A stretch of 64,000 nt of DNA, taken from assembly GCA_001029715.1 (NCBI GenBank), contig CP011212.1, positions 67,407 through 131,406 of the forward strand. Reading direction: 5' to 3'. The position numbers were made by a program, and so were the translations under genes. Under the pieces are notes generated by a model. That model saw nothing but the letters and a program-made list of their open reading frames with translations, was not told the origin of the DNA and searched no databases. This DNA comes from a candidate division TM6 bacterium GW2011_GWF2_28_16 (GTDB taxonomy: Bacteria > Patescibacteriota > Microgenomatia > UBA1400 > PJMF01). Positions 7,978 to 47,838 of this stretch are shown here, piece after piece (within the stretch, counting starts at the first letter, position 1; each line of letters opens with the position of its first letter).

Positions 7978-8021
7978 AATTTTTTCCTTTTTAATTACTA
8001 AATTAATTTATTATAAATACG

Positions 8022-8030: not shown

Positions 8031-8044
8031 AGTTTAGTCAACTT

Positions 8045-8383: not shown

Positions 8384-8395
8384 ATTTTTTCGTTT

Positions 8396-8824: not shown

Positions 8825-9180
8825 TTAGCTACGCCTGGAATAATATTTTGAATTAAATCTCCAGGATTTAGGATGTCAACTCCGACTAAACTACCGATCA
8901 GGCCAATAATAGCATAGCTAGCTACGATTAAAATTATGCCCAATGTTCCCCAAATAAATCTATTTTTAGCTTTTTCTACCTTACTACTGTCTCCTCCTGC
9001 AGTCGCCCATTCAAAAGCTGCTAAAAATGAGAAAACCACAAAAAATAAAATAGCTAAAACGGTAATCGCTCCAATAATATCGCTAAGATACAATTCCAAA
9101 GAAGAGACAAAACCCTCATTGGTTAAACTTTCTGGAGCTCTTGCTTCGCTAACTGGTTGTATTGATCCAATGTCTGCCAT
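8821..9180 (-). CDS. TrbC/VirB2-like T4SS-pilin-family protein (paralog 5)
   Basis: Core AAFEWATAGGDSSKVEKAKNRFIWGTLGIILIVASYAII. Confidence 0.7.
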   Translation of the reverse strand: MADIGSIQPVSEARAPESLTNEGFVSSLELYLSDIIGAITVLAILFFVVFSFLAAFEWATAGGDSSKVEKAKNRFIWGTLGIILIVASYAIIGLIGSLVGVDILNPGDLIQNIIPGVAK

Positions 9181-19303: not shown

Positions 19304-20337
19304 AATTTCCTGGAAAAATTATATTCAAGAATTTCTTTTAAAAGGAGATTCATCTCTTTAGGCTCTATTTCTGCGATTTCAACTTGAGCTTTTTTCTTAA
19401 ATTGATTAAGTAATTTTTCAATTTTTGTTTGGGCGAATTGTCTAAAAAGATTTTGAATTTTGATGATTTCTTCTTTGCTAAGATTTTTTTGTCCATATTT
19501 TGCCATTAAAAACTCTTTTTCTGATGGAGGAATTTCCTCTAGTAGAGTTAAATAGAAAAGTGTCTTCTTACCCTCTCTAATATCAGAGGCAAAACTTTTG
19601 CCAGAAAGCTCTTCCGGAGTAAAAATGCTGATAGAATCATCCACTATTTGGAAGATTAAGCCGAGCTTTTCACCGATTTTTTCAAGTTGTGTGATTTCCT
19701 CATCTTTTAATTCATTGATTAGTCCAGCTAATTTCAATGGAAGAGAAAAAGTATAGCGAGCTGTTTTGAAAAGATACATTTCTAAGACTTCATCAAAACT
19801 TGGAAGTTCTTTTTGCGAGGTAATTTTGCTATCTAACATTTCTGCAAAATTAGTTTTAATGATTTCTTCTGAAATAGTTGGAAGAATATTTGTTTCTCTT
19901 AATAAAGAAATAGCTAGGAAATTTGCAATGTTGGCAAGGCAAATCGCTTGGTTTTGCCCATATTCTTTAGGATTCTGATAGTTTTCTCTTTCAGCATCCA
20001 ATTCATATTGATACCAAATTGAATTTTGACCACGGCGCTTCTTATCTTGGTCAATAATATCGTCATGGATGAGTAGGCTTGAGTGAATTAATTCTAATGC
20101 GGCGGCAATCTTTAGAAGTTTTTTTTGTTCTGTTTGATATTTTTTTTCATCAAGAGATTTGACGGCAAGTAAAAAAAGTCCGCCGCGCACAGTTTTACCA
20201 CTGATTACAAAATCTTTAATTTTGCTAAAAGCATCTTTCACCAAGCTTTGTTTTTCAAATTTCTTTTCTTCCTCAGAAAGAAAAGAGAGTAGAAAATTAT
20301 CAATGAGTTGTTTTTCTTCTTGTAATTTTTCTATCAT
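19300..20337 (-). CDS. polyprenyl diphosphate synthase (trans-IPPS, FPP/GGPP synthase family)
   Basis: The first Asp-rich motif is LIHDDIIDQDKKRRG. The second motif region is FQIVDDSISIF (DDxxS rather than DDxxD), followed by GKSFASDIREGKKTL. Confidence 0.82.
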   Translation of the reverse strand: MIEKLQEEKQLIDNFLLSFLSEEEKKFEKQSLVKDAFSKIKDFVISGKTVRGGLFLLAVKSLDEKKYQTEQKKLLKIAAALELIHSSLLIHDDIIDQDKKRRGQNSIWYQYELDAERENYQNPKEYGQNQAICLANIANFLAISLLRETNILPTISEEIIKTNFAEMLDSKITSQKELPSFDEVLEMYLFKTARYTFSLPLKLAGLINELKDEEITQLEKIGEKLGLIFQIVDDSISIFTPEELSGKSFASDIREGKKTLFYLTLLEEIPPSEKEFLMAKYGQKNLSKEEIIKIQNLFRQFAQTKIEKLLNQFKKKAQVEIAEIEPKEMNLLLKEILEYNFSRKF

Positions 20338-21011
20338 TTTAAGATTTTTTCTATTGTTGCTTCTGCCAAAATAGCCATGGAATCAAAAATTTCTGTTCCA
20401 GCATATATTGGAGTTAATAGTTGCAGATCAGTGCAAGCTAAAACAACATGTTTAATATCTTTCTTTGCAAATTTCTGAATAATTTTAATTAACTCAGTCT
20501 GATCTTTTTCACTGTATCTACTGCGAACTAAATTGTTAATTAGTTGGCCAATTTTCTCCTGATCTTTTTCTATGGGTAAATGAATTTTAATATCTTTTAA
20601 ATTGTACAAATTTGTCTTGATGGTTGGATTTGTTGCCAATAAAGCGATCTCTTTAATATCTCTTTTTTTAAGAAATTTCTCTGTTTCTTCAACAATGCTT
20701 AAAACTGGGATTTTAACAACTTGACGCACAGCATCAATGGCTAAGTGTACGGAATTGCAGGGAATCACAATAAAGTCTGCGCCGCCATTCTCCAATCTTT
20801 TAGCTGCATCTTGGAGATATGGAATATATTTTTCAAATCCCTGAGCTTTAGTAATAAAATCTTGTTCAAGCTGATATTCTAGAGGAATGCTCCAGATCAG
20901 CACAGGTGGTCTCTTTTTTTTATTTTTTTCAAAACTAGAAAAAATCAGTTTTAAATAAAATTCAGCCGTAGTTTCTGGTCCCAATCCACCAATGATTCCC
21001 GTAGTCTGCAT
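20334..21011 (-). CDS. aspartate/glutamate racemase family protein
   Basis: Shows GIIGGLGPETTAEFY, ..IVIPCNSVH.. and ..VVLACTDL.., which supply the two catalytic Cys contexts. Confidence 0.8.
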   Translation of the reverse strand: MQTTGIIGGLGPETTAEFYLKLIFSSFEKNKKKRPPVLIWSIPLEYQLEQDFITKAQGFEKYIPYLQDAAKRLENGGADFIVIPCNSVHLAIDAVRQVVKIPVLSIVEETEKFLKKRDIKEIALLATNPTIKTNLYNLKDIKIHLPIEKDQEKIGQLINNLVRSRYSEKDQTELIKIIQKFAKKDIKHVVLACTDLQLLTPIYAGTEIFDSMAILAEATIEKILK

Positions 21012-21099
21012 AGCTTGTCTATTTTATAACTAAAAAATCCAGATTGCCATGTAAATTCTTTGCATGATTTTTTTTGTTTTTTACGACTATTAGAGTGTA

Positions 21100-22278
21100 A
21101 TGTCATTTTTTAAGAAAAATATTCAAATGCAAAATGATGAGCAAGCAATTGCTTCTCGTCAAGAAGACTTGCTAAAGAATTGGAAAAAGGCTGATTTTAA
21201 GCAGCTTTTTTCTATCAACAAAGCACTGAGCAAAGCCAACCAATGCAATTGTGAAAATATGATTGGCGCAGTTACTTTACCGGTTGGTTTGGCTGGTCCA
21301 GTTAAAGTTATTTTAGAAGACAGCGAAACTGAATATTTTGTGCCCCTAGCAACTAGTGAGGGCGCTTTAGTTGCTAGCGTAAATAGGGGTTTAAAAGCAA
21401 TTAATCAAGCTGGCGGAGCTCAAGTTTTTGTCAAAAATGTTGGCATGACTAGAGCTCCAGTTTTTGCTTTTGAAAATGGCAAAGAAGCTTTTGCTTTTGC
21501 TACTTATTTGGAAGAAGCCAAAACTTTGGCGGAAATAAAAAAGATTACTGAACTAAGCAGCGATCACCTCCATTTTAAAAATCTCCAGAGTTTTGTCAGA
21601 GGTCGTAATGTCTATGTACGTTTTAGTTTCTTCACTGATCAAGCCATGGGCATGAACATGGTTACCCTTGCCCTTCAGAAATTGTGGGAAGAATTTTTGA
21701 GTAATTATCAGGGTATAAAAATGTTGGCTTTATCTAGTAATGTTTGTACTGATAAAAAATCTTCATTTATCAATCAATTACTTGGTAGAGGCTATAGTGC
21801 TCAGGCTGAGGTTTTTTTAAGTGAAGCAATTTTGGAAAATATTCTAAAAACTAGTTCTAAGGCTTTGTTTAAAACCCATCAAAGCAAAAATCAAATTGGT
21901 TCAAATCTAGCCGGGACTTTTTCTAACAATATGCAATTTGCCAATGTGGTGGCAGCTTTTTATATGGCTACTGGTCAAGATTTGGCTCATATCACTGAGG
22001 CAAGTCAAGGTAATACAATCGTCGAGGAAACTGAAGAAAAAGGCCTTTATTTTGCAGTTAACTTACCAGATTTGCCGCTTGGCAGTGTTGGTGGTGGAAC
22101 TAACTTGCCCGCTCAAAAAGAGTTGCGCAACTTAATTCATCAAAGTAACGAAGACCTAGGCTCAGTGCAACTAGTTAGTATTTTAGCGACTGGCGTTTTG
22201 GCAGCGGAAATTTCTGGTTTGGCAGCTCTTAGTAGTAATAGCCTAGCCCAGGCCCACCAAAGATTGGCAAGAAAATGA
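21100..22278 (+). CDS. hydroxymethylglutaryl-CoA reductase, class I (archaeal/eukaryal type catalytic domain)
   Basis: Shows ENMIGAVTLPVGLAGPV, TSEGALVASVNRG, DQAMGMNMV and GGGTNLP. Confidence 0.88.
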   Translation: MSFFKKNIQMQNDEQAIASRQEDLLKNWKKADFKQLFSINKALSKANQCNCENMIGAVTLPVGLAGPVKVILEDSETEYFVPLATSEGALVASVNRGLKAINQAGGAQVFVKNVGMTRAPVFAFENGKEAFAFATYLEEAKTLAEIKKITELSSDHLHFKNLQSFVRGRNVYVRFSFFTDQAMGMNMVTLALQKLWEEFLSNYQGIKMLALSSNVCTDKKSSFINQLLGRGYSAQAEVFLSEAILENILKTSSKALFKTHQSKNQIGSNLAGTFSNNMQFANVVAAFYMATGQDLAHITEASQGNTIVEETEEKGLYFAVNLPDLPLGSVGGGTNLPAQKELRNLIHQSNEDLGSVQLVSILATGVLAAEISGLAALSSNSLAQAHQRLARK

Positions 22279-23345
22279 AAACAAATCAAGTCGGCATAGT
22301 TGCCTATGGTGCAGCTATTCCAAGACACAAGGTTTCCACTAATATTATTGCTCAAAGTCAGGGTAAAAATGCTGATGTGGCTAAATCTTTGGGTGTTTTT
22401 TCAAAAACTATTCCAAGTTTAGATGAAGATACAGTGACTCTTTCTACAGAAGCAGGCAAAATTGCTTTGGATAGATTTTTATTAAATAAGGGCGCAGTCA
22501 AAAATATCGAAACTCTTTTTATTGGTAGCGAAAGTCATCCTTATGCTGTCAAACCATCTGGCACAGTAGTCAAAGAAGCTCTTGGTTTAAGCAACTATTT
22601 AAGTATGGCTGATCTACAATTCGCTTGCAAAGCTGGTTCTCAGTCTCTGCAAATCGCTGCAGCTTATGTTCAGGCAAAAATGGTTAAAAATGCCATGGCA
22701 ATTGGTGCAGATACTGCCCAAGCTCGTCCTGGAGATGCTCTAGAATATACTGCGGCGGCGGGCGCCGCCGCCTTCATCCTTGGTCATGAAGCGAATAGCG
22801 ATCAATTATTAGCTCGCTTATCAGCCACTAAATCAGTAGCAACTGATACGCCAGATTTTTGGCGCAAACCAAAAGAATCTTATCCGCAACATTTTGGCAG
22901 ATTTACTGGCGAGCCGGCTTATTTCAAGCATGTTTTGATGGCCAGTAGTGCGCTTCTTGCAGAAACAAAGTTGAAGCCAGCAGAAATTGATTTCTGCGTT
23001 TTTCATACGCCAAATGCCAAGTTTCCAGAGCAAGCCGCTAAAATACTTGGATTTACCAAAGAGCAATTAGCTCCATCTCTAGTCGTTAAAGAAATTGGTA
23101 ACACTTATGCCGCTGCTTCACTTTTAGCTCTAACTGCAGTTCTTGATGTCGCTCATGCTAGTGCTAAAATTTTGGTTTGTTCTTATGGTTCTGGTTCGGG
23201 GGCTGATGCTTTTTTGTTTGAAACAACTAAGAATTTGGAAACACAGAGAGTAAAGTATAAAAAAACTCTAGCAGCCCAAATTGCTGCTTTGGAAGCAATT
23301 GATGCTGAAACTTATCAAAAAATGAGGACTGACAATGAACATTAA
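22275..23345 (+). CDS. hydroxymethylglutaryl-CoA synthase (archaeal-type, short form)
   Basis: Shows GIVAYGAAIPRHKV, ..GSESHPYAVKP.. and FACKAGSQSL (catalytic Cys context), then HTPNAKFP. There is a 4-nt overlap with the HMGR gene. Confidence 0.85.
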   Translation: MKTNQVGIVAYGAAIPRHKVSTNIIAQSQGKNADVAKSLGVFSKTIPSLDEDTVTLSTEAGKIALDRFLLNKGAVKNIETLFIGSESHPYAVKPSGTVVKEALGLSNYLSMADLQFACKAGSQSLQIAAAYVQAKMVKNAMAIGADTAQARPGDALEYTAAAGAAAFILGHEANSDQLLARLSATKSVATDTPDFWRKPKESYPQHFGRFTGEPAYFKHVLMASSALLAETKLKPAEIDFCVFHTPNAKFPEQAAKILGFTKEQLAPSLVVKEIGNTYAAASLLALTAVLDVAHASAKILVCSYGSGSGADAFLFETTKNLETQRVKYKKTLAAQIAALEAIDAETYQKMRTDNEH

Positions 23346-24444
23346 AGTAATTGGCAATTACATTGGTAAATTTGCTGAGCTTTGGGAACAGAGCTTAACT
23401 GATTTGATTAAAGAAGGAGTAGAGGGCGTTTTAGCTGATGCGCAAATTGATCCAAAATCAATTGATGCGATTTTTGTAGCCAATAAAGCTAGTGGTAGTT
23501 TTAATAATCAACGTCATTTAGGTGCTTTAGTGAGTGAGCAATTTGCTCATTTTCCTCCAGCAATGCGCATTGAGGGCGCTTGTGCTTCGGGTGGTTTAGC
23601 TATGCTAGCTGCGGAGCAAGCCTTACTCAGCGGTGTTTATAAAACAGTTTTAGTGCTCGGAGTAGAGAAAATGACTGATGTCTCTGGTTCGGAAACAGCA
23701 GCTATTTTAGCGACTGCAGCTAGTCGAGAGAAAGAATATGGCTCTACTTTCCCAGCCCTCTATGCGATTTTGGCCAATTATCACATGAATAAATACGGCA
23801 CTACCAGAGAGCAGTTATCTAGTGTAGTGGTTAAGAACCACTTACACGCCTTCGATAATCCTAAAGCCCAGTTTCATAAGAAATTTACTTTAGAAGATGT
23901 TGCCAATTCTGCCATGGTCGCTTCGCCTTTGCGCTTGTTAGATTGTTCACCAATTAGCGATGGAGTAGCTGCCGTCATTCTTAGCAGTAAACCTTCTTCT
24001 CGCAAAGCTAAAATTCTTGGTTTTGGACATGGCCAAGATACTTTGGCACTTGCCGATCGCCAAGATTTAGGCAGATTGGCTGCGACAGAAAAAGCAGCCA
24101 AACAAGCGTTCTTAATGGCCAAATTGAGTCAGACAGACATTCAAGTGGCAGAAGTTCATGATTGTTTCAGTATTGCTGAAATTTTGGCAGTGGAAGACTT
24201 AGGCTTCTTTGCCAAAGGAAAAGCCGCCGCCGCCATTGCTAAAGGCAAAGCTACTTACGGTGGGCAAATAGTTATCAATCCTTCCGGCGGCCTCAAAGCT
24301 TGTGGGCATCCAGTTGGAGCGACCGGAGTGAAGCAAATTGCTTTTTTGGCTAATTTAATTGAAAAAGGAAAATTTGAACGAGTTCTAGCTCATAATGTTG
24401 GCGGCAGTGGAGCAACCGCGGCTGTAAATATTTTAGGAATATAA
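23335..24444 (+). CDS. acetyl-CoA acetyltransferase (archaeal-type thiolase)
   Basis: Shows RIEGACASGGLA (active-site Cys), ..EVHDCFSIAE.. and NPSGGLKACGHPVGATG. Confidence 0.85.
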   Translation: MNIKVIGNYIGKFAELWEQSLTDLIKEGVEGVLADAQIDPKSIDAIFVANKASGSFNNQRHLGALVSEQFAHFPPAMRIEGACASGGLAMLAAEQALLSGVYKTVLVLGVEKMTDVSGSETAAILATAASREKEYGSTFPALYAILANYHMNKYGTTREQLSSVVVKNHLHAFDNPKAQFHKKFTLEDVANSAMVASPLRLLDCSPISDGVAAVILSSKPSSRKAKILGFGHGQDTLALADRQDLGRLAATEKAAKQAFLMAKLSQTDIQVAEVHDCFSIAEILAVEDLGFFAKGKAAAAIAKGKATYGGQIVINPSGGLKACGHPVGATGVKQIAFLANLIEKGKFERVLAHNVGGSGATAAVNILGI

Positions 24445-24446
24445 AT

Positions 24447-24740
24447 ATGAATATAACGGAGTATTGGCGCTCAAACAAACAATGGTCTAAATATCTTGGC
24501 AAAAAAGCCAAGGTTTTAGCTGTTTCATTGATGGAAGTGGCGGCTTCAGATCAAACTGCGCTTTTGCCTTATTCTTATTTGCTCCTAGATTTAGAGAAAA
24601 GTAAAATTTCTTTGATGGGTGCTGCTCATCAAGAATTTAAAATTGGTGATGAGGTAGAAATTGTTTTGCGCAAAATTAAAAAAGAGGCTCAGGAAGAGAT
24701 AATCGTTTATGGTCTCAAAGCGGAAAAAATTTATGTCTAG
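24447..24740 (+). CDS. DUF35-type OB-fold protein lacking the N-terminal zinc ribbon (thiolase/HMGS partner)
   Basis: 97 aa with no Cys. The pattern G..AKVLAVS..........LPYSYLLLDLE...ISLMG.......IGDEVEIVLRK resembles the DUF35 OB-fold. It occupies the same position as the archaeal thiolase-HMGS-DUF35 triad. Confidence 0.55.
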   Translation: MNITEYWRSNKQWSKYLGKKAKVLAVSLMEVAASDQTALLPYSYLLLDLEKSKISLMGAAHQEFKIGDEVEIVLRKIKKEAQEEIIVYGLKAEKIYV

Positions 24741-25599
24741 TTTTTACAGTGGCAAAGTTATTTTAAGTGGGGAACATAGCGTGGTTTATGGCTATCAGGC
24801 TGTTCTGGCGAGCTTGGATTTAGGAATTTCTTGTATTGCTAAAGAAGGCTCTTTGAGTCATGAGCAAAAAAGTGATCTATATCTACAGCACATTCTAGAG
24901 ATGTTTTCTAAGCTTGCACAAATTAAAGAAATTCAGTTAGCACTTAAAATTAAATCGAATTTGCCTCAAAAATCAGGTCTTGGTTCTTCAGCGGCTTTTG
25001 CAGCAGCAGTTTTTTCAGAGTTGGCAGATTTTTATAATTATTCACTCAACCAAGATCGCCTCTACAAATTGGTTTTAGAAGCAGAAAATTTTATTCATGG
25101 TCGTTCCAGCGGAGCTGATCCAGCGATTGTTGTTTATGGTGGCTTAATTGCTTTTAGTCAAGGTAAAGTAGAGCATTTGCCAGATTTAGCCTTGGCAAAG
25201 AAAAGTTTTTTCTTAATTGATTCTGGAATTGCTGATGAATCCACTGGTGAAATGGTGGCTAAAGTTGCTGCTAATAAGTCTAGCCGGCCATTTATAGATG
25301 AAATTGGCGGAATTAGTCAAAAAATGATAGTTGATTTAAAGAATAGTTTCTTCAATCCTCAACTTTTGAATGAAAATCAAGCACTTTTAGAAGAAATTGG
25401 CATAATTGCTGATTCAGTGAAAGACACTATTCGCCAATTACAAAAGTTAGGTGCTTTTTGTAAAATTACTGGAGCAGGCGGACTGAAGAGTGGCTCTGGT
25501 TTTATTTTAGCTTTTCACCAAAATGAAGCAAACTTTGAGCAAAATTTAAAAAATATGGGTTTGAGTTTTTTCAAAACCCAACTAGGAAATACGAAATGA
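24733..25599 (+). CDS. GHMP kinase, mevalonate-kinase-like (paralog 1)
   Basis: Shows GKVILSGEHSVVYG (motif I) and QKSGLGSSAAFAAAV (motif II), then KITGAGG. ATG 24733 (MSSFYSGK..) is preferred over the longer 24709 start. Confidence 0.8.
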   Translation: MSSFYSGKVILSGEHSVVYGYQAVLASLDLGISCIAKEGSLSHEQKSDLYLQHILEMFSKLAQIKEIQLALKIKSNLPQKSGLGSSAAFAAAVFSELADFYNYSLNQDRLYKLVLEAENFIHGRSSGADPAIVVYGGLIAFSQGKVEHLPDLALAKKSFFLIDSGIADESTGEMVAKVAANKSSRPFIDEIGGISQKMIVDLKNSFFNPQLLNENQALLEEIGIIADSVKDTIRQLQKLGAFCKITGAGGLKSGSGFILAFHQNEANFEQNLKNMGLSFFKTQLGNTK

Positions 25600-26585
25600 A
25601 AAAAGTGAAGACTTCTGCCCCAGGAAAATTGATGCTTTTTGGTGAACATAGTGTGGTTTTTGGTCATCCTTGTATTGTGACTGCCGTTGATCGTCGTTTA
25701 TCAATTACTGTTGAGGAAAATGGCGAAGAAGTTTTTATTTTAGATGCGCCAGATTTGGGTTTACGAGCTTATTCTAAGCGAATTTGTGATCTTGGTAATA
25801 AAGATTTGCCAAAAGAAGTTAGCTTTATCGAAACTTGCTATAAGCTATTTTTGGAGAAATACCCACAACAAAAAACTATTCATGTTTATAGCAAGAATGA
25901 ATTCAAATCTTCTTATGGTCTTGGTTCAAGTAGTGCTAGCACAGTGGCTTTTGCTAAAGCTTTAAGTGAGTTTTATGAAGTGCCAATGAATAATGATCAG
26001 TTGTTCGATTTGGCTTATCAGACTGTTTTAGAAGTGCAGGGTGTGGCTTCTGGTTTTGACATTGCAGCTGCAATTTGGGGTGGAACGATTTATTACATCA
26101 CTCCTCATGGCAAACTTAGTAAACATAAAACTGTCGAACCAATCAAAATCAAAAACTTGCCTTTGTTAGTTGCCTATACTGGTATTAAAGCTGATACTGC
26201 CACCTTAATTCGAATGGTGCAAAATTTGCACAGTGAAAACAAAGGAACAGTTAATCACATTTTTACCGATATTACTCTTTTGGTAGAACAGGCTAAAAAG
26301 ACTCTTCAACAGCAAGACTGGCCACATCTTGGCTTATTAATGGATGAGAACCAAGCTTTACTACGTAAATTGCAAATTAGTAGCATTGAGCTAGAGAATC
26401 TCATCGCTGCTGGCAAAAGTGCCGGAGCAATGGGAGCCAAGCTCTCTGGAGCTGGAGGCGGTGATTGTATGTTAGCTTTAGTTGATGAAGCTGAGAAAAA
26501 AGCCGTTGCTCAAGAAATTACCAAGGCTGGTGGTAAAATTATTGAGGTGGAGATGAATGCGGAGGGCGTACGTTTGGAAAACTAA
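25596..26585 (+). CDS. GHMP kinase, mevalonate/phosphomevalonate kinase (paralog 2)
   Basis: Shows APGKLMLFGEHSVVFG, SSYGLGSSSASTVAFA and KLSGAGGGDCMLAL. There is a 4-nt overlap with paralog 1. Confidence 0.8.
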   Translation: MKKVKTSAPGKLMLFGEHSVVFGHPCIVTAVDRRLSITVEENGEEVFILDAPDLGLRAYSKRICDLGNKDLPKEVSFIETCYKLFLEKYPQQKTIHVYSKNEFKSSYGLGSSSASTVAFAKALSEFYEVPMNNDQLFDLAYQTVLEVQGVASGFDIAAAIWGGTIYYITPHGKLSKHKTVEPIKIKNLPLLVAYTGIKADTATLIRMVQNLHSENKGTVNHIFTDITLLVEQAKKTLQQQDWPHLGLLMDENQALLRKLQISSIELENLIAAGKSAGAMGAKLSGAGGGDCMLALVDEAEKKAVAQEITKAGGKIIEVEMNAEGVRLEN

Positions 26586-26694
26586 GTTTCGAGCCAGAGA
26601 TCGCTTGAATAAATACATTTTTTCACGCGCTCAAATGTCTCTAAACTTAGTTTTCCAAAACGTACTTTATTTAATTAAGCAAATTGAAAAAAAT

Positions 26695-27693
26695 ATGAAA
26701 AAAACAACGGTTCAAGCAGGTAGTGATATCGCTTTTGTTAAGTATTGGGGCAAAAAGGATAAAATCCTACGTTTACCAAGCAATGGTAGTATTTCCATGA
26801 TTTTAGATTCTTTGCAGAGCAAAACTACTGTCGAGTTTTTGCCAAATTTAGCTAAGGATGAGATCATAATAGGTGGCGAAGTTGAAGAGGGAGAGGCTTC
26901 TCGTGCCATTAAACATTTGGACAGAATTAGAACTTTAGCCAAAGAAAAAGGATTGATAGATAAAGATATTTTTGCTAAAGTCGTTTCGGAGAATAATTTT
27001 CCCAAGAGCACTGGTCTTTCTAGCTCTGGTTCTGGTTTTGCTGCTTTGACCATGGCTGCCACTAAGGCTATTGGTTTAGATCTTTCAGAAAAAGAATTGT
27101 CTATTTTAGCCAGGCAAGGATCTGGCTCTGCCTGTCGCTGTGTTTGTGGTGGTTTTGTTGAGTGGTTAGATGGTGAAACTTCTGAAGAATCTTATGCACA
27201 AAGCTTTGCTAAGTCAGAAGATTTTGATATTAGAGATTTAGTGGCGATTGTTTCAGAAGATAAAAAGAATTTAAGCTCAAGTGATGGACATGATTTAGCA
27301 GAAAGCAGTTTGTTTTTTAAGGCTCGTCAAGAAAAAATTGATACCAAGTTAGCAGCTGTCAAAAGAGCAATTTTACAAAAAGACTTTGAAACCCTAGGTG
27401 AAATAGTAGAAGCCGAGGCTTTAGAGTTTCACTCAATTTTATTAACCAGTCAGCCAACTATCTTGTTGTTTTATCCGGGAACGATTGAGGTGATGCAGGC
27501 TGTTCGTCAATTGCGTAAGACTGGTGTGCCAGTTTATTTCACTATTAATACCGGCTTCAATGTCCACATTTTGACTTTACCTCAATATGAGAAACAGGTA
27601 GCTGCTGTTTTGCAAAATTTACCAAGTGTGCAGAAAATTATTATCTCAGGAGCAGGTAATCAGCCAGAATATTTAGAAAAACATTTGTTTTAA
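26695..27693 (+). CDS. mvaD: diphosphomevalonate decarboxylase
   Basis: Shows SDIAFVKYWGKKD, PKSTGLSSSGSGFAAL and GSGSACR. ATG 26695 (MKKTTVQAG..) is preferred; the 46-codon upstream extension in the ORF track has no homology-like content. Confidence 0.85.
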   Translation: MKKTTVQAGSDIAFVKYWGKKDKILRLPSNGSISMILDSLQSKTTVEFLPNLAKDEIIIGGEVEEGEASRAIKHLDRIRTLAKEKGLIDKDIFAKVVSENNFPKSTGLSSSGSGFAALTMAATKAIGLDLSEKELSILARQGSGSACRCVCGGFVEWLDGETSEESYAQSFAKSEDFDIRDLVAIVSEDKKNLSSSDGHDLAESSLFFKARQEKIDTKLAAVKRAILQKDFETLGEIVEAEALEFHSILLTSQPTILLFYPGTIEVMQAVRQLRKTGVPVYFTINTGFNVHILTLPQYEKQVAAVLQNLPSVQKIIISGAGNQPEYLEKHLF

Positions 27694-28109
27694 AAACTTG
27701 GTGTCGAACTGCGACTGGCTTCGTATTGCTTAACTACTTCTTGGCAGTAAATATATTTGCCATATTCAAAAGCTTTTTCAGAAATATTTTGCTCGCCATT
27801 TTCGTCAACTCTGACGGCCTCTTGGACAAATTCTTGAGCAACTCCACCAGCCTCTTTGGCTTTTTCTGTCAAAATCTTAATTTGTGAAACACCATTTTCA
27901 CCTAAATTTTTAAAGTCTTCTTGCTTGAAATCAATTTGATCAAATTCAATTTCTTTATCTTTTTGCCAGGGAAGAGTGATACTTTTTGGGAGGCCTTCTT
28001 CTATTTTGGAAAAAATTTCATTATTAAGCCAACCTTTGTTTTTGGCAAATTTATAGGCAAAAACAACTAGAGCTATGGCGATAATAATGGTAAACAATTT
28101 GCGAAGCAT
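27690..28109 (-). CDS. hypothetical N-terminally anchored protein
   Basis: 139 aa with an N-terminal TM (LFTIIIAIALVVFAY) and no recognisable family. Its start codon lies inside a 9-bp hairpin (28104-28129). Confidence 0.5.
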   Translation of the reverse strand: MLRKLFTIIIAIALVVFAYKFAKNKGWLNNEIFSKIEEGLPKSITLPWQKDKEIEFDQIDFKQEDFKNLGENGVSQIKILTEKAKEAGGVAQEFVQEAVRVDENGEQNISEKAFEYGKYIYCQEVVKQYEASRSSTPSF

Positions 28110-28187
28110 GCTTTTATTTTAGCATGCTTTAAGGAGCGGCTGTGCACCCTGCGGGTACTACCCAGGTTTGCTTTGCAAACTTGGCGG

Positions 28188-28261
28188 TGCGTGTGCTAGG
28201 ACTCGAACCTAGAACCGCCAAGGTATAAGCTTGGAGCTCTAACCAATTGAGCTACACACGC
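28188..28261 (-). tRNA. tRNA-Ile, anticodon UAU
   Basis: The minus-strand sequence folds into a clean 74-nt cloverleaf: acceptor GCGTGTG/CACACGC, D arm GCTC-AATTGGTTA-GAGC, anticodon stem CCAAG/CTTGG with loop C-T-TAT-A-C, variable CGGTT, T arm CTAGG-TTCGAGT-CCTAG, discriminator A. CCA is not encoded. Confidence 0.88.
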
Positions 28262-30787: not shown

Positions 30788-31588
30788 ATGAAATTTTTAA
30801 AATTAAATACAAAACAAAGATATTGGCTAGATTTTATTCTTGTGATGACGCAAAAGGAGATAAAGGCAAGGTATAAGAGAACTTTTTTAGGTCTTTTGTG
30901 GGTAATTTTTAATCCATTCTTGCAGATGCTAATAATTGGTTTGATTTTTCAATTTTTTGTTCCTATGCAAATTGAGAATTATTTTCTTTATCTTTTTGCT
31001 GGTCTTTTACCTTGGAATTTCTTTTCAATGGCGCTTTTGCGCGCGACACCTCTTTTAGTGCAGGAAAGATCTTTGATTCAAAAAGCTGCTTTTCCTAGAG
31101 AATTAATGGTTGTGGCAGTGGTCATGGCAAATTTATTTCATACTTTAGTGGCTAGTTCAGTATTTTTGCTATTTTTAGCTTTTCTAAAGACGAGTTTTTT
31201 TGCTGGTGTCCTATTTTTTATATCTAGCTTTTTCTTAATCTTTTTAATACTTATCTTTTTATTATTTTTTACTTTGGCGACTTGTTTAGTTATTTCTGCA
31301 TTATATGTAAAGATAAGAGATTTAATTTTCATTATCCAACTTTCAATTCAATTGCTATTTTATGCTGTGCCAGTTATCTATAGTCTAGAGATGTTACCGG
31401 AATTTTTTAGAAATCTACTTTATCTAAATCCATTGGTTAGCTATATTGAGGTTTTTAGAGCGGCTGCTTTAAATAGTGTTTTCAATTATAAAATGGCAAT
31501 TTATGCCGGTCTTTTTTCCATTTTTTTTCTATTTTTTGCTCTGCAATTTTTTCGAAAAGAAAGCAAAAATTTTGATGATTGGTTTTAA
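30788..31588 (+). CDS. ABC-2 type transporter permease (Wzm/TagG-like)
   Basis: 266 aa with six TM helices. The N-terminal cytoplasmic helix EIKARYKRTFLGLLWVIFNP is typical of ABC-2 polysaccharide/teichoic-acid exporters. Confidence 0.82.
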   Translation: MKFLKLNTKQRYWLDFILVMTQKEIKARYKRTFLGLLWVIFNPFLQMLIIGLIFQFFVPMQIENYFLYLFAGLLPWNFFSMALLRATPLLVQERSLIQKAAFPRELMVVAVVMANLFHTLVASSVFLLFLAFLKTSFFAGVLFFISSFFLIFLILIFLLFFTLATCLVISALYVKIRDLIFIIQLSIQLLFYAVPVIYSLEMLPEFFRNLLYLNPLVSYIEVFRAAALNSVFNYKMAIYAGLFSIFFLFFALQFFRKESKNFDDWF

Positions 31589-31596
31589 ATTTTAAA

Positions 31597-32649
31597 ATGA
31601 AAAACAGTAAAAATAAAAAAATAGCTATAAATATAGAAAACGCTAGTAAACGCTATTTCTTGCGATCTGCAAAAGCTAAGAAAAAAGAAACTTTTTTTGC
31701 CTTAAAAGATATAAATATAAAAATATTTAAGGGAGAAAAAGTAGCTATTCTTGGTGACAATGGGGCTGGCAAGACTACTTTGCTCAAAGTAATGACTGGA
31801 ATAGCAGAACCAACTTGTGGGAAAGTGAATAGTATTGGTAAGCTTGTTTCCTTAATTGATATCACGGCTGGTTTTCATCCTGAGTTTTCAGGTCGTGAAA
31901 ATATTTATTTCAATGGCATTCTTTTAGGAATGAATCTTTCTTCAATTAAAAAATTAGAGCAAGAAATAATTAATTTTTCAGGTATAGAAAAATTTATAGA
32001 TCAAGCTCTTTATACCTATTCTTCAGGTATGGTTTTGCGGCTTGGTTTTTCTATTGCTATTCACAGCGATCCAGATATTTTAATTTTGGATGAGGAGGTG
32101 GTGGTGGGAGATCAGGATTTTCAGAAAAAGGCCTATGATGAAATTGAGAAGATTTTTGCTGAAGGTAAAACCATTGTTGTTTGTAGTCATGTTTTACCTT
32201 TACTGAGTAGACTTTGTGAGCGCTTCATCTGGCTAGATAAAGGCAAAGTAAAAATGGATGGAGGTAAAGAGGTTGTTATTGAATATAAAAAGAATCGAAG
32301 TAAATTGGATATAGAAAAAATTGGCAAGATTAAAAATGAAAAAAAATTTTTTCAATTTCTGCAATCTTTGCCAATCGGAGAGAGGTTTATTGTAGAAGCA
32401 GTCAGTGGCAGTATGGAGCCACTTATCTTAAAGGGCGATGAGGTAAGAGTTGAAAGGTGTTCACTTAAAAATATAAGAGTTGGCAACATAATTGCTTATT
32501 GGAGCGATGAATTTAAAAATATCATTGTTCATAGAATTTATAAGAAAAGCTCTAAGGGGATTTTCTTGACTAGAGGAGATAGTAACTATATTGTAGATGA
32601 GATGCCAGTCACAGAAGATATTTTTTTAGGTAAAGTTATTAATTTTTAA
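31597..32649 (+). CDS. ABC transporter ATP-binding protein (Wzt/TagH-like) fused to a C-terminal S24/S26-superfamily (SipW/Sec11-type) peptidase domain
   Basis: The NBD shows Walker A GDNGAGKTTL, TagH-like AGFHPEFSGRENIY, signature YSSGM and Walker B ILILDE. The C-terminal roughly 95 aa show SGSMEPLILKGDEV, IIVHRIY and TRGDSNYIVDE. No hydrophobic segment lies between the domains. ATG 31597 is preferred over 31579. Confidence 0.8.
   Translation: MKNSKNKKIAINIENASKRYFLRSAKAKKKETFFALKDINIKIFKGEKVAILGDNGAGKTTLLKVMTGIAEPTCGKVNSIGKLVSLIDITAGFHPEFSGRENIYFNGILLGMNLSSIKKLEQEIINFSGIEKFIDQALYTYSSGMVLRLGFSIAIHSDPDILILDEEVVVGDQDFQKKAYDEIEKIFAEGKTIVVCSHVLPLLSRLCERFIWLDKGKVKMDGGKEVVIEYKKNRSKLDIEKIGKIKNEKKFFQFLQSLPIGERFIVEAVSGSMEPLILKGDEVRVERCSLKNIRVGNIIAYWSDEFKNIIVHRIYKKSSKGIFLTRGDSNYIVDEMPVTEDIFLGKVINF
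32350..32646 (+). other. peptidase-like domain of the ABC ATPase (candidate Ser at nt 32410-32412 in SGSMEP, candidate His at 32530-32532 in VHRI)
   Basis: The box order SGSMEP - GD - VHR - GDSN..D matches the conserved boxes B, C, D and E of ER/archaeal-type signal peptidases (S26B). Confidence 0.6.
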
Positions 32650-32938: not shown

Positions 32939-33922
32939 ATGAAAAAAATTAGCAGACAAGAGTTTGATTATTTAATTAAAAAAAGAAAGCTTGAAGATCC
33001 AAAGAAAATTAAAGCTTTTGAAAAAATACTAAAAGATGAGCGCGGTTATGTTTTCAAAATGCCTAAAAGAGGTTCGAATGTTATTTTAATGGCTTCTGGT
33101 GGACTTGATTCAATGGTTGTTTGGGGAATTTTAATGAAAGAATATGGCTTGAATGTTTATCCGATTACTTTTGACAGAGGTGAAAAAAAAAGAAACAGGG
33201 AATTTGCTGCTTTTAAATATTTTGATAAATTTTATCAGAAAAAATTTCCTAAAAATTATAGAAAATTTTTAGATTTAGACGTAGGACAAGATCAGATTTC
33301 AATAAAAATTGAAGACGGTGTCAAAGATCTACGAGAAGAAACATTATTAAATAATTTTAGAGATGACTTAATGTTTTTTAACCCCTCTTTAGGTGTTTTT
33401 ACTATCTTGCCACTTTTTGCACGTAGTTATGCCATGTATCTAAATGCAATTAAAGGTCTAAAAATTAATACTATTTTTTGTGCCGTCACAGCCAATGATG
33501 GGGAATTAATTGCTCATCAAACCTTAACTTCATTGAGGTCTATTATGTGCAACATGTGTGTTTCAATCAAAGATTATTCTTGGCAGTTTTTGTCAATTTG
33601 TTTAGAGCCAGAAATTAATTCTTTTATAAAGAAATCAGATCTTGTTAAGTGGGGAGAAGATAATAGTTTACCACTAGAAAAATCTTGGAGTTGTTACCAT
33701 GCGAAAAAGTATCAATGTGGTGGAGATAACTGTATTGCTTGTGAAGCGAGAAGAAAAGCATATTTAGAGGCAAAAATAGAAGATAGAACTATTTATAAAA
33801 GCCTTGCAGATCAGGAGATCCTAATTAAAAAAGCGAAAAAAACTTTAAGAAAGTATCTTTCTAGAACAAAAAAGAACTTAATAAACACAGTTAAACGTTT
33901 TTTTGAAGATACGATAAGATAG
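32939..33922 (+). CDS. QueC-like PP-loop ATP pyrophosphatase (divergent, with ~45-aa N-terminal extension)
   Basis: The PP-loop is VILMASGGLDSMVVW, followed by ITFDRGEK (QueC: FDYGQR). The C-terminal four-Cys cluster SCYHAKKYQCGGDNCIACEARR sits at the position of the QueC zinc site. Confidence 0.7.
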   Translation: MKKISRQEFDYLIKKRKLEDPKKIKAFEKILKDERGYVFKMPKRGSNVILMASGGLDSMVVWGILMKEYGLNVYPITFDRGEKKRNREFAAFKYFDKFYQKKFPKNYRKFLDLDVGQDQISIKIEDGVKDLREETLLNNFRDDLMFFNPSLGVFTILPLFARSYAMYLNAIKGLKINTIFCAVTANDGELIAHQTLTSLRSIMCNMCVSIKDYSWQFLSICLEPEINSFIKKSDLVKWGEDNSLPLEKSWSCYHAKKYQCGGDNCIACEARRKAYLEAKIEDRTIYKSLADQEILIKKAKKTLRKYLSRTKKNLINTVKRFFEDTIR

Positions 33923-33964
33923 AACTATCAAGGGGAAATCTAAGAATGCTGTTTAGAACTAAAT

Positions 33965-34033
33965 TTATTCAGCTACTACTAAGATAGCTTTTAGATCAAT
34001 AATTCTAAGTTGAGGTTTTTTATATTTTTGCAT
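33965..34033 (-). CDS. un-called 22-codon ORF MQKYKKPQLRIIDLKAILVVAE; candidate RiPP precursor / leader-like peptide
   Basis: Hand-translated from the minus strand. Y4-x-x-P7-x-L9 matches the YxxPxL leader motif bound by PqqD-like RREs. A TTGACA-17-TAACAT promoter ends 9 nt before the ATG. There is no Shine-Dalgarno, and the ORF is very short. Confidence 0.35.
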   Translation of the reverse strand: MQKYKKPQLRIIDLKAILVVAE

Positions 34034-34042
34034 TGTAATTTA

Positions 34043-34071
34043 ATGTTAGATAATTTTTAAGTTGTTGTCAA
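34043..34071 (-). promoter_or_regulatory. sigma-70-type promoter TTGACA-17 nt-TAACAT upstream of the 22-codon ORF
   Basis: On the minus strand, -35 TTGACA is at 34071-34066 and contains the TGA stop of the methyltransferase gene. The spacer is 17 nt and -10 TAACAT is at 34048-34043. The ATG is at 34033. Confidence 0.45.
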
Positions 34072-34784
34072 CGATTAGATTGCTTTTGAATTATGCCCAG
34101 TCCAGAGCCTAAATAATTTACTTCAATCTTATTTTTGTTTGTTTTTTCTTCCCAAAGTTTCCAGACTCCGTATTTTCCTTCTGGCAAAGTTTCTTTTATA
34201 GAAATATCGTGCAGAAGCATAAGACCTCCTTCATGGAGCATCGGCCAGAAGAGTTTAAAATCTGTTTTTATTCCTTCATAGGAATGGTCTCCGTCTATAT
34301 AGATATATTCATAGCTCATGTTTTTATATTTTTTGGCAAATTTTTGCGTAGTTGTTACAAATAGTTGGATATTATTTTCTAAGCCAAAATTTTTGAAATG
34401 ATCTTTGCCTTCTTGAGTTTTCCAAAAACCTTTTCCGGTCCATGAGCTTTTACCTTCTTTTTTTATTTCATCGCCAAATCCCGCATCAACAAAGTCGACT
34501 TTGCCAAAACCATTGTCATGACAAGCTTGAGCTAGAACAGCTGGTATATATCCATATCGGGATCCAATGCAAAGAATTTTCTTTGCTTTTATTTGTCTGA
34601 GTAGGCCATAGTGAATCCAACCATATCCTAGGTCAGCATTTTTGATATTGGATTCGTGTCCAAATTCATCTGCTTCAAAAAAATTCATTAATTCGGTAAT
34701 TCTTAAATCATTGGAGAGCTTTTTACTTTTTTCTTGCTGATGGAATATTAAATATTTTAAGATTTTTGTTTTGATTCCAAACAT
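34068..34784 (-). CDS. class I SAM-dependent methyltransferase (CmcI / Methyltransf_24-like)
   Basis: Shows ILCIGSRYGYIP (a degenerate G-rich motif I) and YIYIDGDHSYEGIKTDFKLFWPMLHEGGLMLLHDI. Confidence 0.7.
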   Translation of the reverse strand: MFGIKTKILKYLIFHQQEKSKKLSNDLRITELMNFFEADEFGHESNIKNADLGYGWIHYGLLRQIKAKKILCIGSRYGYIPAVLAQACHDNGFGKVDFVDAGFGDEIKKEGKSSWTGKGFWKTQEGKDHFKNFGLENNIQLFVTTTQKFAKKYKNMSYEYIYIDGDHSYEGIKTDFKLFWPMLHEGGLMLLHDISIKETLPEGKYGVWKLWEEKTNKNKIEVNYLGSGLGIIQKQSNR

Positions 34785-34789
34785 AGGTT

Positions 34790-35917
34790 TTAATTCTTTA
34801 AAATTTCGCTAATTTTTTTAATTTTATTATACCAACTATTTTCAATGGCTAATTGTCTAGCCTCTTTTCCATTTTTTTCAATCCAGCTATTTTTTTCAAT
34901 TGTTTCTATATGCTTTTTCCATTCTTGAGCATTTTTTCCTATTTTAATGAATTTTTTGAATTTATTATCAGTTAGTTCTTTTATTTCTGTAGAAATTATT
35001 GGTTTTTCAAAATAAAGATACTCAAAAGTTTTCATTGGATAGCAATTAGCATTAAATGGATAACTGACGTCATAGGGTATTATGCAGAGGTCAAATTGAG
35101 ATATTAATTGAGGAATTTTATCTTTTTTTTGAGATTCAATTTTTTTTACATTGGAGAAAGATAAAAATTTTTTAATTCGTTTTCTTTTATTTTCTTTTAT
35201 TTTTAAGTCTCTTTTAATTGGTCCAATAAAAGTGAAATTAGTTTCTGGCATTAACTTGACTAAATTTATCATTAGATCGTAGTCAATGCGGTCGCTTATG
35301 GCTCCAATAAAACCAACGTTTATTTTCTTCTTCTTTGAGAATTTTATGGGCGATTTTTCAAACATTTGCAAATCAAAGCCCTGAGACACTAAATGAAGCT
35401 TTTTTTTATTATATTTTGCCACTTCTTTTTTTAGGGTCTTTGAATTAACAAAAATATAGTTTGCTTTATCTAAATTTGTTTTATATTTTTTGAAATCAAA
35501 CCAATCAACTATATCTAAGATCAGCTCTCTTTTTTTCAAGTTATGCTTTTCTATTTCCACTGTAAGATCAAAGATCCACTCATATGTTTTTTTATTTATC
35601 GATAGAAAGAAAATAATAAACTCAGTAATAAAATAATTAATTTTGTTATTTAGTTTTGAAAATAAATCTTTTGTAAAGAGAAATTTAATTTTCTTTGGAA
35701 AAAAGTAAAAATATTTATAATAAAAAATGTCATTTTTTTTACTTAATAAAAAGAATTCTTGTTGAAAAAGCTTTTTCCAACTCAAGGAGAAATTTTTTTC
35801 AATAACTAAGACTTTATTATTATTTTGTGTTAAGATCCGAATAGTTTGTAATATGAAATCGCAAATTTCTTGAGGATTTTCATGAGTGGGAACAATAATA
35901 AAACTATTTCTAAGCAT
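34790..35917 (-). CDS. glycosyltransferase, GT-B fold (GT1/GT4-like)
   Basis: The C-terminal half reads INVGFIGAISDRIDYDLMINLVKLMPETNFTFIGPI ... IIPY......NANCYPMKTFEYL...KPIIST. Confidence 0.65.
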   Translation of the reverse strand: MLRNSFIIVPTHENPQEICDFILQTIRILTQNNNKVLVIEKNFSLSWKKLFQQEFFLLSKKNDIFYYKYFYFFPKKIKFLFTKDLFSKLNNKINYFITEFIIFFLSINKKTYEWIFDLTVEIEKHNLKKRELILDIVDWFDFKKYKTNLDKANYIFVNSKTLKKEVAKYNKKKLHLVSQGFDLQMFEKSPIKFSKKKKINVGFIGAISDRIDYDLMINLVKLMPETNFTFIGPIKRDLKIKENKRKRIKKFLSFSNVKKIESQKKDKIPQLISQFDLCIIPYDVSYPFNANCYPMKTFEYLYFEKPIISTEIKELTDNKFKKFIKIGKNAQEWKKHIETIEKNSWIEKNGKEARQLAIENSWYNKIKKISEILKN

Positions 35918-37435
35918 CGACTATATATTAGCAAAGTTTTTGATTTATTTTTTATCAAAAAAAATGCTTTTTCTAAACAAGAAAAAATTTCTATACTTAT
36001 ATCTATTTTGTTTTTAGTTTCAGTTTTCTTCATTCCAAACAATAAATTTTTATTCATGGTTACTGCAACTTACATACTTTCTTTATTTATCGTGAACAAG
36101 TCAATTTATGAAACCGTCTTTTATGCTTTTTTACCACTGAGTTTAGTTTTAGTTGGTCAAGGTTATTCTTATATTGCTATTCCTGGTGAAGCAATAAAAT
36201 CAGAGGGCTATGAAGAGGGAAAAATTTTAAATTATTTTTTTTCTCCATTTATTGTTTTGTTGATTTTAATTAGTTTTTTATTTTTTGTTAATTTAACTCA
36301 AAAACTTTTTAGAAAAAAATCTTTTATTAAATTTAAGCCATTTATTATTTCTTTTTTATTCTTTTTTCTTTTTTCTTTTTTTTCTGCAATTAGCAATGAT
36401 TCTTTTCCAAAATTGTCCTTTCTTTACTTTTTAAATGATTTTCTATTTTTTATTTCTTGTTTTTTTATTGCGCTGTTTATTTCAGATAGCAAGGAAAAAA
36501 CAAATAAAATGAATTTGATTCTATTAAATTTGATAATTTTATCTGTTTTTTTAGGGATGGTTGTGATTTTTCAATTTATAAACAAATCACCCTTAGGAAT
36601 AATAGCTGAAATGAGCCACGAAGTCCCATTTTTTGGAGGTGGAGCAGATGAAGACAGTTCTTTATTTAGACCGATAGGAATTTTTACTCACGCTAATATT
36701 CTGGCTAACTATTTAAGCAATTTATTTTTTTCTATATTTTTATTGAAAGCTTATTTAATAGAAAAAAAAGAATTACTCATTAATAAAAAGTTTATCAATA
36801 TTGGATTGCTTCTCATTTTTATTTCTATATTCTCAACTCTCTCAAGAGCAGTTTATTTAGCTTTGTTTTTATCAGCATTGATTTATGTGTTTATTTTTAG
36901 AAAAGAAATATCCGCAAGCGGTAAGAAAATAGTTAAAAAAATATTGAAAGTTAAATATTTAATTTTTCTTTTACCTTTGATGTGGAATGTAGCTGTAAGA
37001 ATAATTTACAGTTTCAATAGCTTTTATCAAGAGGGAGGGGTTGGAGTTCGGGAAAAACTAACTATAGAGAGCTTAGCTCTTTTAAGAAGAAATTTTTTTT
37101 ATGGAGTGGGAACTGGCATGTTTATCCCATCTTTGTTTAGGGAAAATCCCATTGGAATCATAAGCGAATTTCCGGAGTCAGTTCATAATGGTATTTTATT
37201 AAATTTAATTGAAAATGGGTTTCTTTCTTTTTTCTTCTTTTTGATGGTTTATTTTTTATTTTTCAAAGCTTTAATAGCTTTAAAAGCTAATAAGAAAATC
37301 ATCGTAATTTCTTTTCTAGCAATTTTTTCCCAATTAGTAATAAGTTTCTTTCATCCATTCACAAACACCGTTACTCTATATACTTTTATTATGATTTTGA
37401 TAATATATGATCTATATGCAATTGAAAAAAAATAA
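35870..37435 (+). CDS. O-antigen ligase/polymerase-like (Wzy_C family) membrane protein
   Basis: Polytopic, with LSRAVYLALFLSALIY and ESVHNGILLNLIENGFLSF (a WaaL/Wzy-type loop and motif). The start is uncertain because the ORF overlaps the divergent gene's 5' end. Confidence 0.65.
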   Translation: MRIFMSGNNNKTISKHRLYISKVFDLFFIKKNAFSKQEKISILISILFLVSVFFIPNNKFLFMVTATYILSLFIVNKSIYETVFYAFLPLSLVLVGQGYSYIAIPGEAIKSEGYEEGKILNYFFSPFIVLLILISFLFFVNLTQKLFRKKSFIKFKPFIISFLFFFLFSFFSAISNDSFPKLSFLYFLNDFLFFISCFFIALFISDSKEKTNKMNLILLNLIILSVFLGMVVIFQFINKSPLGIIAEMSHEVPFFGGGADEDSSLFRPIGIFTHANILANYLSNLFFSIFLLKAYLIEKKELLINKKFINIGLLLIFISIFSTLSRAVYLALFLSALIYVFIFRKEISASGKKIVKKILKVKYLIFLLPLMWNVAVRIIYSFNSFYQEGGVGVREKLTIESLALLRRNFFYGVGTGMFIPSLFRENPIGIISEFPESVHNGILLNLIENGFLSFFFFLMVYFLFFKALIALKANKKIIVISFLAIFSQLVISFFHPFTNTVTLYTFIMILIIYDLYAIEKK

Positions 37436-38294: not shown

Positions 38295-38301
38295 AGTTTT
38301 T

Positions 38302-40678: not shown

Positions 40679-40680
40679 TT

Positions 40681-41841: not shown

Positions 41842-41843
41842 TT

Positions 41844-47835: not shown

Positions 47836-47838
47836 CTT

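Follow-up and report, generated by a model that had tools for sequence, protein, structure and literature searches.

A genomically encoded tRNA-Ile(UAU) in a small Pacebacteria-type genome and its relatives across the CPR/Patescibacteria

Introduction

How is the codon AUA read, and kept apart from AUG, in a bacterium whose AT-rich genome carries a tRNA-Ile gene with the anticodon UAU? The TilS/lysidine system is treated as the near-universal and essential bacterial answer to the AUA/AUG problem, and TilS, encoded by about 98% of the bacterial genomes annotated (PMC12514573), has come under discussion as a target for antibacterials. The few exceptions examined to date are parasites with tiny genomes. 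Nine species without tilS were counted in 2013 (PMC3575796), TAT tRNAs were reported in 19 species of tRNADB-CE (PMC4013482), and the tRNAscan-SE 2.0 survey found Ile3-TAT in place of Ile2(CAU) in 17 genomes (PMC8450103). The supplementary table of that survey names B. adolescentis, haemoplasmas, M. mobile, Neorickettsia and the candidate division WWE3 bacterium RAAC2_WWE3_1 (PMC8450103), the last being a member of the CPR that lacks Ile2 and has Ile3-TAT (File S5, PMC8450103). Of the cultured bacterial species that have a TAT tRNA, roughly half retain tilS, as in Lactobacillus casei/plantarum, Cyanothece and Ferrimonas (PMC3575796, PMC4013482).

The gene studied here lies in a stretch of 64,000 nucleotides, referred to as the window, and was first noticed in a reading of its letters without database searches (the sequence-only reading), which presented UAU tRNAs as rare exceptions to TilS/lysidine decoding. 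For the literature on cultured bacteria, with its counts of 9, 19 and 17, that description holds. We report on the structure, surroundings, conservation and distribution of this gene, on the use of AUA in the window, and on the systems that could read the codon.

Results

ARAGORN found a single tRNA in the 64-kb window, a tRNA-Ile with the anticodon tat (28186-28261, minus strand), and Rfam matched the same gene to RF00005 (28261-28188, model positions 1-71 of 71) with 71.7 bits (E=1e-13; the gathering score is 29) and a posterior probability of '*' across all positions. The covariance model, with a score over its gathering threshold, and ARAGORN thus agree on membership in the tRNA family. 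The RNA reads GCGUGUG-UA-GCUC-AAUUGGUUA-GAGC-U-CCAAG-CUUAUAC-CUUGG-CGGUU-CUAGG-UUCGAGU-CCUAG-CACACGC-A, with perfect Watson-Crick pairs in its stems (7/4/5/5), U12-A23, the loop C32-U33-U34-A35-U36-A37-C38 and the discriminator A73 (Table 1). The 3' CCA is not encoded; the trailer is CCG, and the ARAGORN end at 28186 takes in the encoded CC. Thermodynamic folding gave a minimum free energy structure that is not a cloverleaf, which is common for tRNAs and uninformative. The canonical cloverleaf and the loop C-U-U-A-U-A-C with a genomically encoded UAU (28227-28225), both described in the sequence-only reading with the strand unstated, were therefore recovered, and ARAGORN, run on the window, returned no identity or anticodon other than Ile/tat. 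Having a genomic TAT anticodon, a 7-nt loop, U33 and A37, the gene is a member of the bacterial Ile3-UAU kind. Its predicted Ile identity rests on the anticodon together with A73, A37 and U12-A23; position 38 is C and the pair 29-41 is A-U, both unlike the E. coli Ile identity set.

Table 1. Features of the window and its flanks, in window positions unless another contig is given
Feature	Position	Strand	Basis or remark
tRNA-Ile(UAU) gene, positions 1-73	28188..28261	minus	ARAGORN + Rfam RF00005 + sequence reading
Anticodon UAU, positions 34-36	28225..28227	minus	ARAGORN + sequence; plus strand = ATA
Anticodon loop CUUAUAC	28223-28229	minus	sequence reading
Upstream ORF, 327 aa	28304..29287	minus	no Pfam/PHROG match; ends 42 nt before tRNA
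Hairpin, 10 bp	28162-28184	minus	directly 3' of tRNA
Palindrome GCAUGC-N10-GCAUGC	28105-28126		overlaps start codon of downstream ORF
Downstream ORF	27690-28109		
Mevalonate block	19300-27693	plus	downstream of tRNA; ends 500 nt from tRNA
ABC-transporter ATPase	31579-32649	plus	C-terminal extension
PP-loop ATPase, 327 aa	32939-33922	plus	4.7 kb from tRNA; SGGLDS at aa 52-57
ValRS (class I synthetase)	3561-5819		
T4SS-pilin (PF18895) genes, five, and VirB4-like ATPase	7136-9180 and L006 1-1147	minus (7136-9180)	pilin genes in tandem, near origin
Low-GC regions	33000-50200 and 60000-64000		24-30% vs about 37%
VirD4/T4CP-like ATPase, 780 aa	57678-60020	plus	29 kb from tRNA; DUF8128, DUF87, TrwB_AAD_bind
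tRNA-Ala(UGC)-23S-5S	L129 14974-18461		~65.0-68.4 kb, past 3' end of window

A promoter and terminator scan around the tRNA gave nothing specific. Since no sigma-70-like promoter was found between the upstream ORF and the tRNA, this ORF is probably the transcriptional context of the tRNA, with which it would be co-transcribed. Downstream, the hairpin (CCAAGUUUGC-AAA-GCAAACCUGG) has one A.C mismatch and no U-run; this hairpin and the palindrome beyond it are possible processing or translational-control elements.

The host is a small-genome CPR/Patescibacteria bacterium, as established by its gene content, NCBI protein identities and flanks. Its genome has 853 kb and bears the public-record label Candidatus Pacebacteria; proteins of the window are identical to AKM81029.1, KKQ08780.1 and KKQ88419.1 ('Candidatus Pacebacteria bacterium', with one draft labelled TM6) and are also found in Rifle-aquifer assemblies, and the CPR hallmarks DUF4012, T4SS pilins and an ATP-dependent ligase are encoded. 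The window is densely coding with a G+C of about 33%, and its genes include ValRS, ATP-dependent DNA ligase, PGK, ribosomal protein S1, a DUF4012 protein, a tandem array of T4SS pilins, a VirD4-like ATPase and a large low-GC cluster for glycan synthesis. The upstream flank carries dnaA-dnaN-rpmH-rnpA-yidC, and the window therefore begins about 7.6 kb from the replication origin; the downstream flank carries tRNA-Ala(UGC)-23S-5S and lepA. In this downstream flank the tRNA-Ala(UGC)-23S-5S unit directly follows a protein-coding gene, and 16S rRNA and tRNA-Ile(GAU) are both absent upstream of it; the rRNA operon is split at this site, where the usual spacer tRNA-Ile is missing. Near the origin, the five pilin genes and a VirB4-like ATPase just upstream of dnaA constitute a CPR type IV secretion or competence-like apparatus. 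The low-GC regions encode glycosyltransferases, two Wzy-like O-antigen ligase/polymerase proteins, an epimerase, a DegT aminotransferase and a GDSL lipase, and may represent an envelope island that was gained by horizontal transfer or evolves fast.

The tRNA itself is flanked by a mevalonate operon and an ABC transporter. The mevalonate block is complete, with a polyprenyl synthase, a class I (NADPH) HMG-CoA reductase, an archaeal-type HMG-CoA synthase with its thiolase partner and three GHMP members, namely mevalonate kinase, phosphomevalonate kinase and diphosphomevalonate decarboxylase. The ABC-transporter ATPase has a C-terminal extension weakly like Peptidase_S24 (E=2e-4, under the Pfam cut-off), a LexA/signal-peptidase fold; this fusion would be unusual if real.

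As the sequence-only reading had stated, AUA is frequent in the genes of this AT-rich window: it was counted 350 times in 63 ORFs (17.2/1000, or 20% of Ile codons), compared with 341 AUG codons, and it occurs in 57 of the 63 ORFs. On a published scale that calls more than 10/1000 AUA 'high' (Muraski et al., PMC12514573), the usage in the window is high, and the proteome needs an AUA reader. Usage reaches 25-52/1000 in the envelope and glycan genes of 24-30% GC versus 0-7/1000 in housekeeping genes, where AUA makes up 0 of 30 Ile codons in S1, 1 of 29 in PGK and 5 of 57 in ValRS. To see which residue the codon stands for, PGK, ValRS and UppS were compared with their E. coli orthologues, and ValRS also with three CPR homologues. 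Homologue residues facing AUA codons were I (4), L (3), V (3) and other residues (8), with M at none of the 18 positions, versus M at 22 of the 65 positions facing AUG (Fisher p=0.002). Because the AUA positions face I, L and V and never M, the codon appears to be read as an aliphatic residue, which is consistent with Ile.

To examine how the gene is distributed, one genome of each GTDB species was scanned with a generic pattern (AGAGC-N6-CTTATA-N14-GGTTCGANTCC). This gave at least 120 matches, a sample that speaks for breadth and not for frequency, and ARAGORN called tRNA-Ile(tat) in 119 of the 120 matches listed. At least 68 of these 120 are CPR-labelled and cover many CPR classes; they are mostly Saccharibacteria, with Woese-, Levyi-, Dojka-, Kaiser-, Taylor- and Nomurabacteria also represented, along with Uhr-, Falkow-, Morani-, Niyogi-, Vogel- and Nealsonbacteria and Paceibacteria, and the non-CPR remainder among the matches listed is chiefly Chloroflexota, Planctomycetota and unlabelled MAGs. 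The figure of 68 is a lower bound because some CPR contigs are probably mislabelled: a protein of CPR type is encoded, as a 53-62% identical copy, on several contigs with the label Gammaproteobacteria or Bathyarchaeia, which are probably CPR DNA under a wrong label. The loci with such labels are L134, L152, L154, L171, L199, L210, L226 and L235 (Gammaproteobacteria/Pseudomonadales) and L140 and L196 (archaea), and on several of these contigs a VirD4-like ATPase (53-62%), ValRS (40%), Pacebacteria-like synteny and a CPR-type tRNA-Ile(UAU) make the labels look wrong. The Planctomycetota loci (L156, L164, L165, L166 and L205) are a separate, non-CPR occurrence, in which tRNA-Ile(UAU) stands in arrays of 8 to 35 tRNA genes per 8 kb, adjoining tRNA-Ile(GAU) and between tRNA-Lys genes. 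At two Dormibacterota loci a class I synthetase beside tRNA-Ile(UAU) was considered as a linkage with ileS and rejected, the gene being LeuRS. The UAU tRNA is thus common across the CPR/Patescibacteria and not peculiar to the genome of the window, and the earlier statement that a UAU anticodon is known from only a few lineages needs to be divided: it is accurate for the literature on cultured bacteria, where such tRNAs are rare, but not for the CPR. The main text of the literature searched held no link between CPR/Patescibacteria and lysidine, tilS or tRNA-Ile(UAU); the breadth of this tRNA in the CPR is absent from it, and the one CPR precedent is a published table entry.

The tRNA of the window is 95% identical to that of its nearest relative, L171, and 83-87% identical to those of MAGs from Patescibacteria, Saccharibacteria and Woesebacteria. 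L171 further has homologues of the two ORFs that flank the tRNA in the window (a homologue of the upstream ORF's C-terminus lies directly upstream of the tRNA there) and of the PGK/S1 pair, and this shared arrangement argues for vertical inheritance of tRNA-Ile(UAU) within the order. A family of 75 sequences, 72 of them unique, keeps 97-100% pairing in the acceptor, D, anticodon and T stems through compensatory changes, and most stem positions show between three and six different pair types; A73 is found in all 75 and the loop CUUAUAC in 52. The covariation of the 72 homologues and the copy in L171 mark a conserved gene under selection and not a chance or decaying copy.

Is the gene then functionally a tRNA-Ile? 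One might suspect a copy in decay, a tRNA that receives a different amino acid or a regulatory element resembling a tRNA, given that the isotype is taken from the anticodon only, that C38 and A29-U41 depart from the E. coli Ile identity set and that no promoter-like or terminator-like site lies beside the gene. The four perfect stems with a full-length Rfam match, the 72 distinct homologues that keep the structure by compensatory change together with A73, the presence in 57 of 63 ORFs of a codon that needs a reader, and the positions of that codon, which face I, L or V and never M, make any of these possibilities very improbable.

We also looked for a tRNA from which the UAU form might have arisen recently. 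The family signature of the CPR type is AGCUUAUACCU, whose UAU form is found in 37 of the 119 tRNAs among the genome matches listed. Its CAU twin gave 19 matches in the entire metagenome collection, none of them CPR-like; all 19 have GGCG(A/G)GG acceptor stems, lie on contigs of 41-62% GC and look like elongator tRNA-Met of other phyla, and they were rejected as members of the family. This search of the metagenome collection thus gave no evidence of a recent switch from C34 to U34. In CPR loci the CAU tRNAs that adjoin the UAU gene resemble initiator and elongator Met tRNAs, with no third, Ile2-like one.

Transfer RNA genes are classic integration sites, and tRNA-Ile(UAU) is very common on viral contigs, where the generic pattern had at least 120 matches. 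The gene might accordingly be cargo or an attachment site of a phage or mobile element, acquired horizontally and standing outside the core decoding set, and the adjacency of the UAU tRNA to a VirD4/T4CP-like ATPase gene in 8 CPR loci could be counted in favour of such an origin. Phage tRNAs share the anticodon with the window gene. The latter, however, is chromosomal and without phage context, the six flanking ORFs have no PHROG, integrase or capsid match, the 3' 22-mer of the tRNA recurs nowhere else in the window even when 3 mismatches are allowed, and the search of flanking ORFs and 3'-end repeats gave no prophage or ICE location. Its flanks are the mevalonate operon and the ABC transporter, the chromosomal CPR signature AGCUUAUACCU is found on just 4 viral contigs, synteny is partly kept in L171, and the ATPase is a 44-71% identical protein of CPR core type. 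We regard a mobile origin as hardly credible. The ATPase homologues in question are full-length (44-71%) and lie about 0.05-2.5 kb from tRNA-Ile(UAU) in L134, L140, L154, L173, L185, L200, L201 and L214, eight loci that span several CPR classes; the linkage may be a conserved ancestral synteny or a tie to the CPR type IV system.

Lastly, we searched for the components of the usual system. About 84 of the 853 kb (the window and 10 kb on either side, L006 and L129) contained neither a PF01171/TilS gene nor a CAU tRNA, and ileS is absent from the window, in which the class I synthetase is ValRS. One protein of the window, the PP-loop ATPase of Table 1, was considered as TilS and rejected, having a QueC-like C-terminus with a Cys cluster; only this C-terminus matches QueC, QatC and phage QueC-like models. 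It is a singleton at the 90% cluster level, borders the low-GC glycan cluster and may be a sugar amidotransferase-type enzyme. Beyond it, no SGGxDS PP-loop protein was found in the 120 GTDB loci listed or in the flanks. A profile of the TilS N-domain, made from Aquifex, Geobacillus and E. coli sequences in PDB alignments, was run against a set of 5.8 billion proteins, and the best 120 of 2886 matches were all from Enterobacteria or Aquificae. The viral contigs held 41 phage PP-loop proteins, none adjoining ftsH, and yielded no CPR seed for TilS. In the CPR at large, Southlakia epibionticum, a cultured saccharibacterium, has a 294-aa TilS (SEML1_0730) that adjoins ftsH and was scored as essential by two out of three analyses, and a single gene with the name tRNA-Ile; its IleRS (978 aa) matches eukaryotic IleRS templates and has no match to the Zn-binding domain. 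The CPR are heterogeneous: Southlakia has an apparently essential TilS, and the WWE3 genome shows replacement of Ile2(CAU).

These results bear on whether the UAU tRNA is a redundant decoder, that is, an accessory reader of AUA in a genome that also has TilS and tRNA-Ile2(CAU). The existence of TilS in a member of the CPR (SEML1_0730), its near-ubiquity among annotated bacterial genomes (about 98%, PMC12514573) and its retention by some half of the species that earlier surveys recorded with a TAT tRNA all speak for redundancy, as does the fact that our negative results for TilS and CAU tRNAs cover 84 of 853 kb. The skew of AUA towards glycan genes (25-52/1000 vs 0-7/1000) would likewise fit a supplementary tRNA, which in a variant of this explanation might serve the AUA-rich, low-GC envelope genes. 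In contrast, two decoding systems are unlikely to last in a reduced genome of 853 kb, and the small genomes known so far to have a TAT tRNA (haemoplasmas, M. mobile, Neorickettsia and WWE3) all lack Ile2(CAU). Furthermore, the UAU gene was kept with full covariation over very deep CPR divergences, and no CPR locus has an Ile2-like CAU tRNA adjoining it. We therefore consider redundancy unlikely, while giving it far more weight than a mobile origin or a function other than that of a tRNA-Ile. On balance we lean towards tRNA-Ile(UAU) as the sole AUA decoder, which would have replaced TilS and tRNA-Ile2(CAU) in this lineage.

Discussion

Several known systems resemble the one described here. Mycoplasma mobile and the haemoplasmas share with it a chromosomal TAT anticodon, a small AT-rich genome, frequent AUA and a cloverleaf with A37 and A73 (PMC3575796), although M. 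mobile belongs to an unrelated lineage (Tenericutes, versus CPR) and the loss of tilS and tRNA-Ile2(CAU), the unmodified U34, the Arg865 of IleRS and the discrimination of AUG by the ribosome were demonstrated in that organism (PMC3575796). The closest published phylogenetic precedent is the Ile3-TAT of RAAC2_WWE3_1, a complete CPR genome with a UAU tRNA; it belongs to a different CPR class, and it was published as a bare table entry, without an analysis of TilS, IleRS or distribution (PMC8450103). In Bifidobacterium adolescentis and Neorickettsia the TAT tRNA replaces Ile2(CAU) and the synthetase is a eukaryote-type IleRS2, and by analogy a type-2 IleRS is plausible as an enabling factor in the genome of the window as well. 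In addition, the Southlakia IleRS offers a hint, through its match to eukaryotic templates, that CPR synthetases may be of a permissive type. Lactobacillus casei/plantarum, Cyanothece PCC 7424 and Ferrimonas balearica also have a genomic tRNA-Ile(UAU), but their genomes are larger, they have kept TilS, and redundancy is presumed.

Outside the bacteria, the tRNA-Ile(UAU) of some archaea (Nanoarchaeum equitans, Korarchaeum) and of the eukaryotic cytoplasm likewise reads AUA with U34 and not with a modified C34, and in Nanoarchaeum equitans and Korarchaeum it is found alongside reduced genomes too. Eukaryotes use a pseudouridine-A-pseudouridine anticodon, and archaea otherwise rely on agmatidine and TiaS. 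Unlike these tRNAs, that of the window has the bacterial T-loop UUCGAGU and a bacterial D-arm, and it groups with CPR sequences.

In the explanation that we favour, the locus is a functional gene on the chromosome, inherited vertically, that encodes a minor tRNA-Ile3(UAU) of a CPR-wide family; this tRNA would read the AUA codons that abound in the 853-kb genome of Pacebacteria type. The gene and its fold, the conservation and covariation in the CPR, the use of AUA and the Ile or aliphatic, not Met, character of its positions are direct observations. U34 would pair with the A of AUA, IleRS would accept the U34-A35-U36 anticodon, and AUG would largely be spared because U:G pairs are weak at the A site and tRNA-Met competes. 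This mechanism is modelled on Mycoplasma mobile and on the suppressor of a Bacillus subtilis tilS deletion; an unmodified U34 can bind AUA strongly and AUG just weakly on the ribosome (PMC3575796, PMC3919564). For the genome of the window, we infer that the tRNA is charged with Ile, how U34 is modified, if at all, and that TilS and tRNA-Ile2(CAU) are both absent.

A wider reading can be offered tentatively, with less confidence than the one for this lineage: instead of being a late and scattered replacement, tRNA-Ile(UAU) could be the standard means of reading AUA in much of the CPR/Patescibacteria, and perhaps the ancestral one. If so, lysidine would play no part in the translation of AUA in a major bacterial radiation, and undescribed adaptations of IleRS, U34 modification or the decoding centre would be expected throughout the lineage; such an ancestral state would fit the proposal that UAU decoding predates TilS (Taniguchi et al. 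2013). The interest of the finding, which we consider moderate, comes from its breadth in the CPR and is contingent on TilS status: if TilS is present in these genomes, the finding shrinks to a redundant minor tRNA of modest interest. If instead the UAU tRNA is the sole AUA reader, annotation and completeness checks that expect TilS or tRNA-Ile2(CAU) would misjudge such genomes, and the ways in which IleRS accepts U34 and misreading of AUG is avoided become testable questions. Should the same be true of dozens of CPR lineages, a substantial part of bacterial diversity would live under a different decoding rule.
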